A stretch of 63,858 bases of DNA, counting the filler, from Sandaracinaceae bacterium (GTDB taxonomy: Bacteria; Myxococcota_A; Polyangia; Polyangiales; JADJQN01): NCBI GenBank assembly GCA_947483975.1. It is 2 parts of 2 records of this genome, joined end to end, with 100 filler letters (N's around TTAATTAATTAA, not from the genome) between each part and the next. Parts side by side here need not be neighbours in the genome. Positions count along the whole stretch, not along the records: positions 31,993 to 63,858 come from CANKOL010000018.1; 1 more part is not named here. One strand, given 5' to 3'. This document shows, one piece after another, positions 46,701 through 52,700 of the stretch. Made by a program: the position numbers. How positions within the stretch are numbered: the stretch's first letter is position 1; every line of letters starts with the position of its first letter.

Positions 46701-49700
46701 CACTGCGACAACGGCTTCTGCTGCGCCTCGGGGCAGTGCTGCAGCACCGCGACGGACTGCAGCGGTGGCACTGGCGCCGTCTGCGAGACTCCCCTGACCT
46801 GTCAGGGCACGCGCGGGGACATCACGTGCGAGTCCAACATCTGCGTCATCGCATCGGGGGTGCCGGACGACAGCGCGTGCGACAGCGGAACCATCGCGCG
46901 CGACTGTGGCCTCTTTCTGCCCGTCTACTGCTCCGGCGCGGCCACGCAGACGGCCCCCGCCTGTGCGACGAGCTGCACGACGGACGCTGGCTGTATCCCG
47001 ACGGGCCACTGTGAGGTCGGCGTCTGCGCGCCGGATCGTCCGCCGGGCGGCTCCTGCTCGCGAGTCCAGGATTGCCAGGACGGCAACTCCTGCGTCGATG
47101 GCGTCTGCTGCATGACCGCGTGCTCGGGCCAGTGCGAGCGCTGCAACGCCCCCGGCACGGCCGGAACCTGTACGCCCGTCGGGGGCGGCCAAGACCCCGA
47201 CTTGGAGTGCCCGGGCTTCTCCTGCTCCGACTACTACGCGGGCTTCGACGGGCTGGGCGCTTGTCATCGCCGGGCACCGATCAGCAACGACGCCGCCGTC
47301 TGCAACGGGGCTCGCGCCTGCCTCACGCCCGCCGAGCTTTGCGCCGTGTCGCCCGCCGGCACAGAGGTGCAGATCGACTGCGACGACGTCTGCCAGAGCA
47401 CGACCGCGGGCACCTGCAACGGCACGACGCCGGGCGCGTGCACCGACTCTCCTCCCGGAAGCCAGACCTGCGGTTTCGGCGCGTGTATGACCACGTCGCC
47501 GCGCTGCAACGCCGGCACCCAGGTCACGTGCATCGCGGGGATGAGTTCGCCGGAGGCCTGCAACGGCATCGACGACGACTGCGCCGGCGGCGTCGACAAC
47601 GCGCCGGTCGTGTCGATGTGTCCCGCGACCGCGAACGTCGCGACCACGTCGTGCGGCGGAGCGGCAGGCTGCGCGATCGCCGCCTGTAACTCGAACGCCG
47701 TCGACATCGACGGTGCCTACGCGAACGGCTGTGAGTGCGTCAACGAGGGCAACGGCAACGCGTGCGGCTCTGCGACCTCCCTCGGCGCCATCGGAGTCGG
47801 CGGTTCGGCCAACACGCTGACGAGCTCCATCGCCGTTTCGGGCGCCAGCGATTACTTCTACGTCACGTTCCCGGCGACCGGCTCGCCTGGAGGCGGCACC
47901 CCACACGTGCGCTTCACGCGCAACGACGGCTCGATCTTCCGGTTCGAGATCACGAGCGGGTGCCCGTCGGCCCCGCTCCCATGCGGCATCGCAGGCAGCG
48001 GCGGAGTCGCCACTGGCCGTGACGACTGGTCGTTCGTCGACGACCAGGCCGCCCCCGGCCCCAATCAGTGGAACGTGCGTAACACGGCGTGGCCGGCGGC
48101 CGTCTATGTGCGCGTGTATCGCACGACCTCCGGGGCGAGCTGCAGCCAGTATCAGTTGACCGTCACGCGCTGAAGTGGGTGGGCGCAGGTGGCGCCCCCT
48201 CCGCCACGCTTCTGCGCACCGCCCCCATGAGATTCCCGAAATGACGTCTCCGCTCCAAGGTATTCCGTCCGAGCTCGCGGCCGCCGATCTCAACTCAGGC
48301 GCCGTGCAGCTCAGCGTCGATGCGCAGCTCTATCCGCTCGGCGCGATCTACGCTGCCTCCTACGTCTTTCTCGACCGCTGTTATGTGCTGCTCGATCAGC
48401 CCGCTGAGCACCGTGTCCGCGTCACCCTGACCCCGAAGAAGGGGCCCGCCGACGAGGCGCTGCTGCGCGCGTTCGTCGGTGAGTTCTCGAACGAGCTCCT
48501 CTCGGCGGCCTGGCGGCAGCAGATCGCGCAGGAGAATCGTGCGGTCATCGAGATGGTCACGTCCCAGGCGATCTCGGCCGCGATGGGTCCGCCTTCGCTC
48601 GATGACCTCGCGGCGTTCGACTTCGGCGACGAGGCGTTCGAGGACCCGCTCGGCATCGCGATGAGCTGGGAGGAGAAGTACAAGAAGAAGGACCCCGCCG
48701 CCGCGACTGCTCCGGCGGGCGCTGAGACCTCGGCGAAGCCTGACACCGGCGCGCCCGAGCCCGAGGGCTCGCCGTGACCGAGCTGCGACTGCACCGCTCG
48801 CTCTACGCCGGTACGGCGGTCGACGCGGCGGTGAAGACGTATGCGCGCTTCGCGGCCTTCGAGCTGGTCGAGGAGGCGACTCACTGGGTCGTGCGCGTCA
48901 CCGCGAAGAGCGTCGCCCGCGAGACGCAGATCGCCCACGAGCTCGCGAACTACGCTCTCGGTACGACCATCCGGGAGCGCGGAGCCACGCCCTAACCGTC
49001 GCTCACCGCGCCGTGGTCGACGCCGCGAGCGAACATCTCACTCTCGAGGTCACCAACGCCGAAGTCAGTACCGAGCGCGTGACACGCCTATTCTTTTCGA
49101 TGTAAAGTAACTTCCCACCCACTGGAGCACGAACATGGCAGGACCCGGCGTCAGCGGATCGGACGACAAGGCAGGCGACGATGAGCCCCTGCCAAGCTTC
49201 AAGGCCGACGTCTCAGGGACGCTGTCCGACGAGCAGCGCAGCGTCTCGGCGCGGGCGCTCTCGGCGGCGGACGATACTGTGAAGGGCGATCCAAGTGGCG
49301 CGCAGCGGAGTGGGCAGCACTGCTCGCACGGCTCGCACGGCTCGCACGGCTCGCACGGCTCGCACGGCTCACACGGCTCGCACGGCTCGCACGGCTCACA
49401 CGGCTCGCACGGCAGCTGGTAGTTGGCCTCCGGGGCTGACGTGGTCGCGCGCATCGTTCAACGGACGGGCGGGGGCAACGACGAGGGGGCGGCCGCGAGC
49501 ATCGATCAACGGATCGCTGCGAAGCGCGAGCGCGTCCACATCCTCACGGGTGAGGTCTGCAACAACAACTGCACCTTCTGCATGGAGGAGGATCGTGACG
49601 GACGCAAAGTCACGAACTCTGCCACCAGCGATGAGTCGGTGCGGTGGATCCTCGAGCAGAGCGCCGACTGCGAGGAGGTGTGCTTCACGAGCGGTGAGCC

Positions 49701-52700
49701 GACGACGAATCCTCGTCTGCCCGTCTGGGTGAAGATGGCGCGAGCGGCCGGCGCGCGCCGTGTGAGCGTGATGACGAACGGTCGCGCGCTCAGCAATGAG
49801 CGCTACGCGAAGGGCCTCGTCGCCGCGGGCATGAATCGCTTCTACGTGTCCATCCACGGGCACGACGAGAAGCTCCACGAAGGGCTCACGCGCACTCCTG
49901 GCAGCTTCGCGCAGACCGTGGCGGGCCTCGAGGTCATCCGCTCGTTGAAGCGCTACGGCGTCGACCTGCACACGAGCACGGTGGTCACGAAGCGGAACCT
50001 GCCGCACCTCGGCGAGATCTATCGTTTCCTCCGCGGTCATGGCGTCGACCAGGTCGTGTTCAACGTCATGCAGGCGAACGGGCGGGGCGACACCTATTTC
50101 GAGCAGCTTTTCCCCGCCTACACGGACATCGCGGCGACGGCTGAGGCGTTCTTCGCAGAGCAGGCTCTGCGCGCGAAGGCGCCGGGCGCGGAGGCGCGCA
50201 CCATGGCCTTCCTCGTCGATATCCCGCTGTGCACGACGACGCGCCTGCCCGACTTCAATCGCGGCTACGTCGAGTCCTACGTGCACTACGAGCCGCCGAG
50301 CGACGCTCACGCCGCGCTCGGCGTGGACCTCGCCGAGGCGCGCAGCGCGGGCTCCGGTGGAGGGCTCGTGCAGCTTCGCAGGAGCGACCTCGACGAGGCC
50401 GCGCGGCAAAAGCGCCCAGCCTGCGCGACGTGCAAGTACGACGCGGTCTGCGAAGGCGTGTGGGGAAACTACACGAAGCGCTTTGGGTGGGACGAGTTCG
50501 TCCCCGTCGCTTCGGGCGACTGATTCCATCGATGGTATCCTCGGCCGGCACCGCCGACTCATTCGGTGAGGGAGGCCCCGTGGAGCGCGAACTTCTTCTA
50601 CGCATCTCGGAACAGCTACGTGACCTCGAGCGCCGACTCGCGGTGATCGAGCGCGAGCGCGGACCAGCCCGGGGGCGCCCCGAGGAGTCCCACGGCGGTC
50701 CCTTCGAAGGCGAGCCGTGGAGCGAGAAGCGCCTCATCGACCGCATCGTCGACCTCGTCGAGGAGCGCTTCGTGCGAGTGCTCTCGCGACACCGGCACGA
50801 CGCTCACTGTCACGAGTCGCGCGAGCACGGCGACCGGGGGCACGAGCCTCGCGGGCGCGATTTTCATGGTGGTGGCGGGTGTCGTGAGTGCGGCGACGCG
50901 CACACCGAACGCGCTCGCCGATAACCTCTCGCGTCGCGCCGTGTTTGCGGCGGAGCCCTCCGGCACGGTACCGTGTGCTCCGAGACAGGCGCGCTCGGCG
51001 TCTCTCTTCAGGAGTCCCCATGCGTGCTGCGGTGCTGTCGTCGGTAGTGCTCCTGCTCTCGCTCGCGGCGTGCGCGAGCGGCGTCGGCGGTGAGGCTGAC
51101 GCCGCCACTCCGCCTGCGAGGGACCTCGGTCCGCGCGATGGAGCGGTCCGCGATGGCAGGGTGCCGACTGATATGTCGGGCGGCGACCTCTGCGTCGGCA
51201 TCGTGTGCATGGCCTTCGAGTACTGCGACCGGGGCTCCTGCCGCAACTACGGCCCGTGCACGCCCGCCGGCGGCTGCGCGGCGGCCAGCGACGTCTGTCG
51301 CAATCGCTACTGCGTGCCCCGCACGAGCGACGTCGATGGCGATGGCGTCACGGCCGACACCGACTGTGACGAGACCAACGCGATGATCGCTCCCGGCGTG
51401 CCCGACACCTGCAACGGCCTCGACGACGACTGCAGCGGCACACCGGACGACGGTGCACCGCGCGTGCTCTGCCCGGCCGGCATGGGGGAGTGTCTCGCGG
51501 GCGTGTGTGGCTGCCCGCCGGGGCGCTTCGATCTCGACGCCAACCCGGACAACGGCTGCGAGTGCGCCGGCGAGCCCGCCGACCGGGTCGGGTCGAGCTG
51601 CGCGGCGCCCCAAGATCTCGGCGACATCGCCGACACCCCTCAGACGCAGACCGTGTCGGGCAACGCGCTGCCGGTAGGGCGCGAGGTCTGGTACCACTTT
51701 CGCGGAGTCGACTCCGCGGACACGAGCTGCGACGCGCTCCACGTGCGCGTCCAGTTCCTCACCAACCCCGACAGCAGCTTCGAGTTCACCGTGTTCCGCG
51801 GCGCGTGCGGCACGCTCCCCGAGGGCTGCACCGACACGGGCTATCAGGACTTCTCGTTCTCTACCGACTTCTCGACTGGGGCCGGCTCCACCGGAGAGTG
51901 CCCCTGCACCGTCACGCCGACGGCCGGCGCGAACGTGTGCGGGGACGAGACCGCCGACTACTACGTGCGCGTGCGGCGCGTCGCCGGCGTGCCGGTGACG
52001 TGCGCGAGCTACTCGCTCGAGCTGTCCAACGGCGTGTACTGAGCGCGGTCAGCGCGCCGCAGAGCTCGACGGCACGGGCTGCATGAGTTCGTAGCCGTGC
52101 GCCCGGACGTAGTTGATGTGCAAGCCGCTGCACGTGTCGACGTGCGCGCAGGGCTTGCAGCGGAGCGACTTCGTCCGGTAGCGCTCGAGGATGTAGCGCT
52201 TGGTGTAGCGGAAGATCTCGAGCTGACCGGCCGCGTCCATCATCGCCGTGTCGAGCACCTCGCGCTCCTCGCGCGGCGCTCGGCCGGTGACGCACGCGGG
52301 GACGCCTTCGACGGGCACTGCGGCCGTGAACGCGGCGAAGAAACTCCCTAGCTCCACGTCCTTCTCCCGGCACTCCGTCAGACGCTCGTAGGTCGGCTGC
52401 ATCAGGGTGAGGCGCGCGGGCACCGGGGCGAGCGTGAGGAGCCACTCCGCGGTCTCCTTGGAGAGCGCGACCTGCACCTCGAACTCTGCGTGGAGGGCGA
52501 GCATCGCCACCGCGTCAGCCGGGCGTCGAACGAGCACGCGCGCGAGGCGGCGGCCGTCGAGGCTGCCGTCCGTCGTGAGCGCGTCTGCGAGCCCCGCGTA
52601 GTCGTCGAGCTCGAGCTCGAGCTCGAGCGCGCTCGCGCCGGGGAAGCGAGGCAGCTCAGCGAGCGCTTGCCGGAGGCTCGGCGCCGCGACGCGCAGCGTG

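Follow-up and report, generated by a model that had tools for sequence, protein, structure and literature searches.

Radical SAM pathways that combine a small precursor with a small partner protein include those for PQQ (PqqA/PqqD/PqqE) and mycofactocin (MftA/MftB/MftC). Another system close to the locus described here is the HXS anti-phage system of E. coli (Li et al., Nat Commun 2026, PMC13128918). According to the passages of that paper used here, HxsB, HxsC and HxsD are all needed for the processing of HxsA, in which an SHRSS unit is modified, and HxsC binds HxsD. HxsA requires a signal peptide and a peptidoglycan-binding domain, its basic charge is argued to matter, and its export is non-canonical. 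The same passages place 99.7% of the systems in Pseudomonadota, a figure derived from HxsA homologues only. NCBIfam holds the type-4 families HxsA4 (NF038313), HxsC4 (NF038332, “rSAM_rare_HxsC4”), HxsD-like (NF038315), HxsD (TIGR03976) and HxsB (TIGR03978). Our literature search found no paper mentioning HxsA4, HxsC4 or an HGSHGS peptide, and the type-4 families exist as models and names only.

The window, i.e. the whole stretch of 63,858 nucleotides analysed here, is from a Sandaracinaceae bacterium and consists of contig C17 (1-31892), an N run and the whole of contig C18 (31993-63858). Because C18 begins at 31993, the offset between C18 and window coordinates used in the initial annotation is correct. 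The features of the locus and its surroundings are listed below, with family scores given against the cut-off where one applies.

43929..45779, plus strand: radical SAM–SAM-methyltransferase fusion, 616 aa, conserved neighbour, in relatives the gene immediately before hxsD (Pfam Radical_SAM and Methyltransf_11/25)
45840..48173, plus strand: Cys-rich lipoprotein with a MopE-type metal-binding motif (PF11617, 32.1 versus 27 bits; N-terminus resembles a lipoprotein signal)
48241..48777, plus strand: hxsD, encoding HxsD, 178 aa, an HxsD core prolonged at the C-terminus by a conserved acidic stretch, with a disordered tail (TIGR03976, 57.6 versus 50 bits; 33-sequence alignment; model)
48774..48995, plus strand: HxsD-like, 73 aa, a minimal HxsD core domain; start overlaps the hxsD stop (NF038315, 76.1 versus 41 bits)
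48996..49134, no strand: 139-bp spacer, the site of hxsB in relatives (sequence, blastn, bridging contigs)
49135..49422, plus strand: hxsA4, encoding the putative precursor peptide HxsA4, 95 aa, with a 61-aa acidic leader and the core HCS-(HGS)10-W (NF038313, 63.3 versus 55 bits)
49318..49416, plus strand: eleven H-x-S units, 9-bp tandem repeat (six-frame scan; Tandem Repeats Finder)
49423..50523, plus strand: hxsC4, encoding the radical SAM enzyme HxsC4 (NF038332, 600.2 versus 500 bits)
51017..52042, plus strand: second MopE-motif lipoprotein (PF11617, 32.5 versus 27 bits; start set by eye at the MRAAV... signal)
52049..53932, minus strand: radical SAM protein, 627 aa, HxsC-type paralogue (Radical_SAM, 76 bits; best NCBIfam row HxsC4, 111.8 bits, under cut-off)
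53730..56153, plus strand: double radical SAM protein, about 780 aa, true start probably downstream of 53730 (two Radical_SAM stretches)
56937..58064, plus strand: radical SAM protein, 375 aa, HxsC-type paralogue and conserved neighbour, dn3 (Radical_SAM, 72.8 bits; HxsC4, 100 bits, under cut-off)

The four genes at 48241-50523 run in one direction and belong to the families to which they had been assigned; their products, together with an HxsB encoded on contig C115, all score above the NCBIfam cut-offs. Judged by these curated cut-offs, the locus belongs to the type-4 His-Xaa-Ser system already modelled in NCBIfam, and the proposal of a distinct new subtype has to be dropped, since models for HxsA4, HxsC4 and HxsD-like existed before. 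Its gene content is that of a myxobacterial radical SAM pathway which would modify a ribosomally made peptide. The hxsD start at ATG 48241 is backed by an alignment with 32 relatives; that of HxsC4 is ambiguous (TTG 49423, or a GTG a few codons downstream). HxsC4 carries a CxxxCxxC motif at residues 46-53 and a CxxCx5C motif at the C-terminus.

From its sequence, HxsA4 looks like the precursor of a modified peptide. The leader is acidic (pI 4.2), and what was initially annotated as (HGS)11 does comprise eleven H-x-S units, of which only ten are His-Gly-Ser: the end reads HCS, then ten HGS, then W. Tandem Repeats Finder reports 10.8 copies of a 9-bp unit at 49317-49413, and scanning all 524 contigs in six frames for (H.S)x3 or longer confirmed that this is the one site of the assembly with an H-x-S run. 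HxsA4-family peptides have 9-21 repeats, common leader motifs and no hydrophobic segment; the leader motifs are conserved across 52 distinct relatives, and in 57 of 59 family peptides W directly follows the repeats. Leader motifs and terminal W are both kept here. The highest Kyte-Doolittle mean over 11 residues is 0.44, so that HxsA4 has no hydrophobic stretch, and neither a signal peptide nor a peptidoglycan-binding domain was found in the sequence or by a Pfam-type domain search. The core and repeats contain no K or R, and the HxsA model TIGR03979 gives no match at E ≤ 0.01. With an acidic leader and none of these export, anchoring or basic features, a periplasmic DNA gate of the E. coli type may not be assumed.

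Structure prediction pairs HxsD with HxsD-like in a heterodimer. The model of HxsD has a pLDDT above 88 over residues 1-115, and HxsD-like shares homology with the core of HxsD (hhalign probability 86%, E 4.7e-6, 66 columns). The complex prediction, built on our own alignments, scored 0.71 (runs 0.76, 0.71 and 0.68; best control 0.00); in the benchmark of this score, 116 of 157 solved complexes and 2 of 215 mismatched pairs attained that mark. The runs agreed in at least 89% of contacts, with a partner pLDDT of at least 85. In the predicted pair, HxsD-like may mimic an HxsD homodimer. A search of HxsD against PDB sequences returned nothing better than E 0.65, and no Foldseek hit reached E ≤ 0.001, the strongest of the weak ones being RNA polymerase Rpb11/L-type dimerisation subunits.

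Several of the flanking genes recur in relatives, as seen from the best 80 HxsC4 loci in species genomes. The radical SAM-methyltransferase (best NCBIfam row HxsC4, 86.6 bits, under cut-off) has homologues of at least 40% identity in 28 of the 80 loci, with 77% identity in the same-genus locus of genome G405, and dn3-type homologues are found in 26. The 627-aa radical SAM protein is 75% identical in G405, with homologues in 7 loci. The N-terminal half of the double radical SAM protein resembles B12-binding radical SAM enzymes and its C-terminal half is HxsC-type (rows under cut-offs: ApyD and B12-radical SAM at residues 188-474, HxsC4 with 99 bits at residues 516-739); homologues occur in 9 loci, and a 59% identical one adjoins the hxsD-hxsB-hxsA4 locus of Minicystis. 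Of the other radical SAM clusters, two lie near HxsC4 in 17 and 14 loci. The MopE-motif lipoproteins are 69% (45840..48173) and 61% (51017..52042) identical to counterparts at the same positions in G405, with homologues in just 1 (at least 40% identity) and 3 of the 80 loci, so that conservation of both is limited to close relatives. Neither an exporter nor a protease is among the genes conserved near the 80 loci.

As had been annotated, hxsB is absent from the locus, where merely 139 bp separate HxsD-like from HxsA4. Contigs from 4 other public runs of 3 studies, one of which also contains possible source runs, bridge 48996-49134 with 0-2 mismatches, and the hxsB-free gap is a real junction and no assembly artefact; these contigs break inside the repeat and so provide no independent check on the repeat number. 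The spacer holds a sigma-70-like match at 49079-49108 (1 found versus 0.2 expected), and GGAG precedes the hxsA4 ATG. The sole HxsB above cut-off in the assembly is encoded at C115:11860-13275 (537 versus 370 bits), adjoining an HxsC-like radical SAM gene, and C115 indeed encodes no HxS peptide. C115 and C18 are joined by binning alone, in an assembly that is 81% complete.

These observations had been read as a streamlined HXS anti-phage system, a branch common in myxobacteria whose effector would be matured by HxsC4 and two HxsD-type partners without HxsB. The confirmed junction agrees with this, as do G170, which has hxsD - hxsD-like - hxsA4 with no hxsB in between, and 18 of the best 80 HxsC4 loci, in which hxsA4-hxsC4 occurs with no hxsB within 8 kb. 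However, hxsB lies within that distance in 40 of the 80; the commonest compact form, hxsB-hxsA4-hxsC4 (33/80), has it inside the cassette, unlike the present locus, and none of the 36 hxsD-bearing loci lacks it. Among 401 sampled Myxococcota, with overlaps read from match lists, HxsB (E ≤ 1e-60) is present in all 23 genomes with HxsC4 above cut-off, and in 138 of the 139 HxsD-positive genomes. The same-genus genome G405 (94% complete, 20 contigs) is colinear at 76-80% DNA identity and is a mirror image of ours, with hxsB inside the cassette and hxsC4 outside: by blastn, 1545 bp with hxsB face 98 bp in the window (49026-49123), and 325 bp face 1780 bp with hxsC4, the G405 hxsC4 being elsewhere in its genome. 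Moreover, deletion of hxsB in E. coli abolishes HxsA processing, according to passages of PMC13128918. Together with the copy on C115, these counts contradict an HxsB-less variant common in Myxococcota, and we consider maturation without HxsB extremely unlikely.

Since one HxsB is kept on C115, the system is better described as split. Split forms with intact genes are common in Myxococcota: in Nannocystis, hxsD - hxsD-like - hxsB lies about 400 kb from hxsA4-hxsC4, in Minicystis hxsD - hxsD-like - hxsB - hxsA4 lies about 22 kb from hxsC4, and at least 16 of the 23 HxsC4-positive genomes in the sample encode HxsB on a different contig or megabases away. Each of the 5 named genomes checked has exactly one HxsB above cut-off. 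We therefore think it likely that HxsA4 is the precursor of a split type-4 His-Xaa-Ser system, with HxsD/HxsD-like as adaptor and HxsC4 and a trans-encoded HxsB as modifiers. In many relatives the cassette takes its fullest form, hxsD - hxsD-like - hxsB - hxsA4 - hxsC4, usually closely preceded by the radical SAM-methyltransferase gene, with other HxsC-type radical SAM genes in the vicinity. In the present organism hxsB would have been lost from the cassette, with HxsB acting in trans from C115. The acidic leader would serve for recognition and the C-terminal HCS-(HGS)10-W as core, presented by a putative heterodimeric adaptor, and the H-x-S units would be modified by analogy with the SHRSS unit of E. 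coli HxsA, possibly with the help of neighbouring radical SAM enzymes.

Alternatively, loss of the cassette hxsB may have disabled the pathway, leaving the other genes to become pseudogenes and the C115 hxsB to serve another, unassembled substrate. In a quick tree the C115 HxsB and the second HxsB of G064 are sisters, outside 44 cassette HxsBs (SH-aLRT 95; both branches long); G064 also has a cassette HxsB, and its second copy likewise lies beside an HxsC-like gene. This grouping, which favours decay, implies that the HxsC-like/hxsB module may be a separate system, and such pairs occur with no nearby HxS peptide in G280, G130 and G064. The C115 HxsB may thus be a paralogue with its own partner instead of the cassette enzyme, and the incomplete assembly could be missing a further hxsB, or another HxS peptide on which the C115 pair really acts. 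The tree test does not reject a clade uniting the C115 HxsB with the cassette HxsB of the congener (p-AU 0.29); C115 and the congener share no synteny outside hxsB. Decay is nevertheless very unlikely in our view: the four genes are intact, with third-position GC of 0.84-0.89 and scores above the family cut-offs, the peptide retains leader motifs and terminal W, runs of three studies contain this sequence again with 0-2 differences, and in the phylum split arrangements with intact genes are the rule. Could the split system still be a functional phage-DNA-entry barrier, in which matured HxsA4 would reach the periplasm by a dedicated route and block DNA with its His-rich repeats? In its favour, the enzymes for maturation are homologues (HxsB 537 bits, HxsD 57.6 bits, HxsC4 the nearest relative of HxsC), and in E. 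coli the H-x-S array is the functional element and export depends on HxsB, HxsC and HxsD (passages of PMC13128918). Nevertheless, the anti-phage role was carried over from E. coli, and HxsA4 lacks both the signal peptide and the peptidoglycan-binding domain stated there to be required, as well as repeat Lys/Arg and any TIGR03979 match. There is no defence gene context, PADLOC giving only partial radical SAM-domain matches to viperin models, and the components are spread over hundreds of kb to Mb. Defence islands usually spread patchily, whereas HxsB tracks lineage (29 of 29 genomes of family f23, 0 of 34 of f20). We regard such a barrier as rather unlikely.

For the split system we lean towards a modified, His-rich peptide that would mature in the cytoplasm and serve a different purpose, e.g. 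in metal binding or as a peptide-derived cofactor, because the precursor has nothing of what exports and anchors HxsA in E. coli, and the genes follow lineages and lie scattered instead of being packed in a mobile island; this leaning against defence is based on absent features and distribution. Concerning distribution, genes for His-Xaa-Ser maturation are widespread among Myxococcota: 110 of the 401 sampled genomes (27%) have HxsD above cut-off, reproducing the frequency first annotated, and 141 (35%) have HxsB. The view that HXS-type genes are not nearly confined to Pseudomonadota holds to this extent, but not the claim of a distinct enzyme set.

The comparison with the E. coli HXS system, as far as passages of PMC13128918 describe it, reveals a common HxsB-/HxsC-type radical SAM pair, a small HxsD and a tandem H-x-S substrate. 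The gene order differs, being hxsD-hxsB-hxsC-hxsA in E. coli and hxsD - hxsD-like - (hxsB) - hxsA4 - hxsC4 here, where HxsD-like is an extra protein and HxsC4 falls far below the cut-off of the HxsC model TIGR03977 (82.6 versus 267.9 bits). The substrate here is a 95-aa peptide with eleven uncharged H-x-S units at the very C-terminus behind an acidic leader, the components are often unlinked, and extra radical SAM genes are conserved nearby. HxsD has no detectable likeness to solved PqqD-type domains (PDB sequences, Foldseek). Like the PQQ and mycofactocin pathways, the locus pairs a radical SAM maturase and small accessory protein with a short precursor bearing a leader and a C-terminal core, but this core is a long repeat instead of their single modified site.

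The cassette lies on contig C18 of a 5.29-Mb MAG of 524 contigs that is 81% complete. C17 fills positions 1-31892 of the window, and all of C18 fills 31993-63858. Because the two contigs are joined by N at 31893-31992 and are not one molecule, the sequence before 31993 provides no context for the locus. All four cassette proteins score above the curated NCBIfam cut-offs:

48241-48777, plus strand: HxsD, 57.6 bits against a cut-off of 50 bits (TIGR03976)
48774-48995, plus strand: HxsD-like, 76.1 bits against a cut-off of 41 bits (NF038315)
49135-49422, plus strand: HxsA4, a 95-residue peptide, 63.3 bits against a cut-off of 55 bits (NF038313)
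49423-50523, plus strand: HxsC4, a radical SAM enzyme, 600.2 bits against a cut-off of 500 bits (NF038332)

HxsD and HxsD-like are encoded as an adjacent pair, in which the hxsD stop overlaps the hxsD-like start, and hxsC4 directly follows hxsA4, as it does in 55 of 80 relatives (the best 80 of 165 loci). With HxsA4, HxsC4 encoded beside it, the HxsD/HxsD-like pair and an HxsB in the genome (on contig C115, outside the cassette), the locus belongs to the type-4 His-Xaa-Ser system in the sense of existing NCBIfam models. Since these models already define the type-4 system, the subtype is not new. No Rfam family reached its gathering score between 42000 and 59000, and a terminator scan of 45500-52300 returned none against 1.5 expected. 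A sigma-70-like hexamer pair (GTGACA-18-TAAAGT, 49079-49108) in an AT-richer spacer and a GGAG at 49125-49128, both shortly before the hxsA4 ATG, could form a candidate separate promoter for this precursor gene.

The C-terminus of HxsA4 reads HCS-(HGS)10-W and is encoded by a 9-bp tandem repeat. The initial annotation had described eleven straight His-Gly-Ser repeats; the count of eleven H-x-S units stands, but only ten of them are HGS, the first being HCS. This is the sole run of at least three H-x-S units in any of the six frames of all contigs of the assembly. Among 59 HxsA4-type peptides recovered, the tryptophan directly follows the repeats in 57, the first unit is HCS in 44, HAS in 9 and HGS in 6, and the peptides have between 9 and 21 units (median 13). 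Common to their 52 distinct leaders are an acidic N-terminus and three motifs, LP-x-F/Y, QR-x-IS-x-x-A and AD. The leader of the window peptide has a pI of 4.2 and no hydrophobic stretch at its N-terminus (highest Kyte-Doolittle mean over 11 residues 0.44), and its core holds 11 His and no Lys or Arg, so that His is the only potentially positive residue. Pfam gave nothing for HxsA4 except a sub-threshold collagen-repeat match, and the HxsA model TIGR03979 gave no match at E ≤ 0.01. Judged by sequence, the acidic leader and uncharged repeat core of HxsA4 are the architecture of a putative modified-peptide precursor. Contigs of four other runs break inside the repeat, where the summed contig depth rises 2- to 13-fold (49301-49377), and so give no independent check of the repeat number; other HGS-peptide genes of the same lake communities probably share the repeat words.

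Does the lack of hxsB in the cassette define an HxsB-less system? The gap itself is genuine: contigs of four further public runs, drawn from three studies, bridge the 139-bp junction between hxsD-like and hxsA4 with 0-2 mismatches; one of these studies also includes runs flagged as possible sources of this DNA. This confirms the initial annotation of a four-gene cassette without hxsB, in its genes as in its families. The further claim, that such a variant is common in Myxococcota, fails on a census of relatives. For this we took the best 80 of 165 HxsC4-related loci from one-genome-per-species collections and mapped the window's proteins and H-x-S runs onto them. The titles of these loci are myxobacterial or say only delta-proteobacterial, and their HxsC4 is 61-71% identical to that of the window. 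Within this set of 80, hxsB occurs within 8 kb of hxsC4 in 40 loci and hxsD in 36, none of which lacks hxsB; 33 have hxsB-hxsA4-hxsC4 in this order, usually with hxsD and hxsD-like ahead of it. The pair hxsA4-hxsC4 stands alone in 18 loci with at least 4 kb visible upstream (and 2 more on short contigs), and hxsC4 alone in 16 (and 4 more on short contigs). Where genomes are complete or nearly so, the parts missing from the locus turn up elsewhere. Nannocystis punicea and N. exedens have hxsD, hxsD-like and hxsB at another site, which in N. punicea is about 400 kb away from hxsA4-hxsC4, and in Minicystis rosea a group of hxsD, hxsD-like, hxsB and hxsA4 lies about 22 kb from hxsC4.

Co-occurrence across an even sample of 401 Myxococcota genomes, the MAG included, leads to the same result. 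Above cut-off, HxsC4 was found in 23 genomes, HxsB in 141 and HxsD in 110, so the His-Xaa-Ser machinery is widespread in the phylum, as had been proposed. According to the overlap of these lists, all 23 HxsC4-positive genomes have HxsB and 22 of them have HxsD (the exception is 77% complete), and HxsB (E ≤ 1e-60) is present in 138 of 139 genomes with HxsD (E ≤ 1e-5). What is common in the phylum is therefore not an enzyme set lacking HxsB, and the absence of hxsB at the locus is a local rearrangement and no new enzyme set.

The only HxsB above cut-off in the assembly is encoded at C115:11860-13275 (537 bits against 370, TIGR03978). Upstream of it lies a radical SAM gene of HxsC-like type, whose scores of 162 bits (HxsC4) and 104 bits (HxsC) both fall below the cut-offs. 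A quick maximum-likelihood tree built from 61 HxsB sequences places the C115 protein as sister to the second HxsB of another sampled genome, G064 (SH-aLRT 95, both branches long); in that genome, too, the gene adjoins an HxsC-like one, and a cassette HxsB is also present. The two sister proteins fall outside the 44 cassette HxsBs. Outside hxsB we found no synteny between C115 and G405, the single other genome of the genus in the sample (94% complete, 20 contigs). The tree favours a paralogue over a relocated cassette gene, while orthology with the cassette gene of G405 is not rejected by an AU test of a clade of the two (p-AU 0.29). A second, independent example of an hxsB-free cassette is found in G170 (C5:438300-457300), with hxsD, hxsD-like and an hxsA4 of 15 units, no hxsB between them, and radical SAM genes following; there hxsC4 lies 8 kb off on the opposite strand, and two HxsB genes are located elsewhere.

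The G405 locus is colinear with that of the window at 76-80% DNA identity and runs radical SAM-methyltransferase, MopE-motif lipoprotein, hxsD, hxsD-like, hxsB, hxsA4 (likewise with eleven H-x-S units), a second MopE-motif lipoprotein and two radical SAM genes. A stretch of 98 bp in the window corresponds to 1545 bp in G405 that contain hxsB, and the 1780 bp holding hxsC4 in the window correspond to 325 bp in G405, whose hxsC4 is on another contig with no adjoining peptide gene. Because both enzymes are in the cassette in many lineages, the simplest history would be a full ancestral cassette from which the two congeners lost opposite genes, each keeping a copy elsewhere. A tree of HxsC4 does not join the window's enzyme and the congener's as sisters, a placement that is poorly resolved.

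Beyond these loci, the wider myxobacterial branch is real and diverse. In other myxobacterial families hxsD, hxsD-like and hxsB are followed by an (HGS)n peptide ending in HGQW or HGSW and then by HxsC-like genes. Two such loci, in G307 and G055, have a peptide ending in HGQW and 2-3 HxsC-like radical SAM genes below the HxsC4 cut-off, which means that the HGS-repeat system is wider than the HxsC4 model. HxsB also occurs with HxsA-like proteins (in G263, G125 and G375; loci L151-L153) that have an N-terminal hydrophobic signal, basic repeats HRSHSSHRSHSSH and a C-terminal domain and resemble the E. coli effector type more closely than HxsA4 does; the basic repeats of signal-bearing HxsA-like proteins of some Myxococcota read HRSHSSH. 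Four loci, three from Sandaracinus-type MAGs (L086, L091, L088) and one from G045 (L150), carry two tandem hxsA4-type genes upstream of a radical SAM gene, and such tandem genes differ in repeat number (13 and 18 units; 18 and 24 units). In an uncultured Nannocystaceae MAG (L018:7776-9002), hxsA4 and hxsC4 form a single 473-residue frame with no stop after the terminal tryptophan, which reflects either a natural fusion of precursor and enzyme or a fault in the assembly.

The genes hxsD and hxsD-like are adjacent in every locus seen. HxsD-like amounts to the HxsD core in minimal form (hhalign probability 86%, E 4.7e-6, 66 columns), a homology visible at the profile level only, as BLASTP between the two gave nothing significant (E 0.4). 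HxsD carries in addition a conserved acidic extension (GPPSLDDL..FDF..E.FEDPLGIA.SWEEKY). Prediction of the complex supports a heterodimer of HxsD and HxsD-like, with a score of 0.71 (runs 0.76, 0.71 and 0.68; best control 0.00), at least 89% contact agreement and a partner pLDDT of at least 85. The score mark is reached by 116 of 157 solved complexes and by 2 of 215 mismatched pairs, counts that apply only roughly here because our own alignments were used. The HxsD model is confident across residues 1-115. Solved structures gave a best E of 0.65 by sequence, and Foldseek returned no match at E ≤ 0.001; weaker fold matches of Rpb11/RpoL/Pcc1 type (best E 5.9e-3, TM 0.34/0.47), headed by Rpb11/L-type dimerisation subunits, are a lead only, and no PqqD-type match appeared in this search.

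The cassette stands in a cluster rich in radical SAM genes, bounded by ordinary housekeeping genes:

40680-43088: phosphoketolase (1427 bits), upstream boundary of the cluster
43929-45779: radical SAM-methyltransferase fusion, homologue in 28 of 80 loci, mostly directly upstream of hxsD
52049-53932: 627-residue radical SAM protein, homologue in 7 of 80 loci
53730-56153: double radical SAM protein, homologue in 9 of 80 loci and beside the Minicystis cassette
56937-58064: 375-residue radical SAM protein, homologue in 26 of 80 loci
58102-60320: MlaD- and MlaF-like lipid-transport genes, downstream boundary

When all called proteins of these best 80 of 165 loci are clustered, the next commonest neighbours are two further radical SAM families (17 and 14 loci), and no conserved peptidase or exporter was among the clustered proteins. 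A radical SAM-AhpC/TSA peroxiredoxin-like fusion family occurs in 7 HxsC4 neighbourhoods (e.g. L026:2-1507). The initial annotation had left room for the radical SAM and MopE genes on either side having no connection with the system. For the radical SAM genes their conservation in 7-28 of the 80 loci speaks against this; the two MopE-motif lipoproteins, kept in the congener, have homologues in just 1 and 3 of the 80 loci and are rejected as a general component. PADLOC, run on 25 proteins of C18 and C115, found no defence system, its output being limited to viperin models matched in part through the radical SAM domain, plus a small number of weak, unrelated hits.

What is observed directly is the gene content, the family assignments, the co-occurrence, the synteny and the split arrangement; how the parts work together can be proposed by analogy with E. 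coli, for which passages of the HXS paper state that HxsB, HxsC and HxsD are all required, that HxsC binds HxsD, and that a change of +8 Da maps to one SHRSS unit (PMC13128918). The HxsD/HxsD-like pair would then bind HxsA4 via its leader, HxsC4 and the trans-encoded HxsB would modify its H-x-S units, and the neighbouring radical SAM enzymes may modify them as well. A barrier to DNA entry as in E. coli seems an unlikely role for the window system, because HxsA4 lacks the effector features that matter in E. coli, distances between the genes can reach megabases, the distribution tracks lineages (all 29 genomes of one family have HxsB, against 0 of 34 in another), and there is no defence context; any anti-phage role of an HxsA4-type effector is doubtful. 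The leading alternative is a putative metal-binding or cofactor-like role for a modified, His-rich peptide. Tentatively, and with somewhat better prospects than the barrier, we hypothesize that a multi-enzyme radical SAM pathway takes the myxobacterial (HGS)n-W peptides as its substrates, and that these peptides do not act as phage barriers. Its enzymes would be HxsB, HxsC4, the radical SAM-methyltransferase, the double radical SAM enzyme and other HxsC paralogues, with the HxsD/HxsD-like heterodimer as their guide. The poly-His repeat might thereby become a heavily modified intracellular metal-binding or redox-active peptide, with genes so free to act in trans that congeners lost opposite enzymes from the same cassette.

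These results correct a tempting over-reading of the absence of hxsB at one locus. The maturation genes are present in about a third of the sampled Myxococcota species, where they serve a very different, peptide-like substrate amid many extra radical SAM genes. Anti-phage calls based on HxsB, HxsC or HxsD homology alone will consequently label systems whose effectors lack the features shown to be important in E. coli. Cultured strains of Nannocystis, Enhygromyxa and Minicystis would make the H-x-S modification chemistry testable on a substrate with 9-21 identical target units, and could also reveal whether the modification serves defence.

The only experimental work found in our literature search is the E. 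coli paper (PMC13128918) and its preprint; no paper naming HxsA4, HxsC4 or an HGSHGS peptide was found, and the relevant text of PMC9062424 mentions HxsB and HxsC only as annotated enzymes. According to passages of the E. coli paper, HxsB and HxsC are adjacent ("always close together") and the genes run hxsD-hxsB-hxsC-hxsA (PMC13128918), whereas the window has hxsD, hxsD-like, hxsA4 and hxsC4, with hxsB on another contig. HxsC4 reaches only 82.6 bits against the HxsC equivalog (TIGR03977, cut-off 267.9 bits), and none of the 24 matches in the assembly exceeds that cut-off. E. coli HxsA is described as having a signal peptide and a peptidoglycan-binding domain, each needed for defence (PMC13128918), neither of which was seen in the window HxsA4. 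The tandem H-x-S repeats of the E. coli type are enriched in basic residues; the eleven units here have no Lys or Arg, and His is their one potentially positive residue. The published picture of HXS as a Pseudomonadota system was drawn from the effector family alone: as the paper's text has it, the figure of 99.7% of systems in Pseudomonadota derives from HxsA homologues in NCBI (PMC13128918), and HxsA4-type peptides would therefore have escaped it. Compared with RiPP-like pathways, a PqqD-type leader-binding domain, a leader peptidase and an exporter were not found in the cluster, whose conserved neighbours are radical SAM genes, while HxsA4 shares with their precursors the short length, the conserved leader, the variable core (9-21 repeats) and the adjoining maturase gene.
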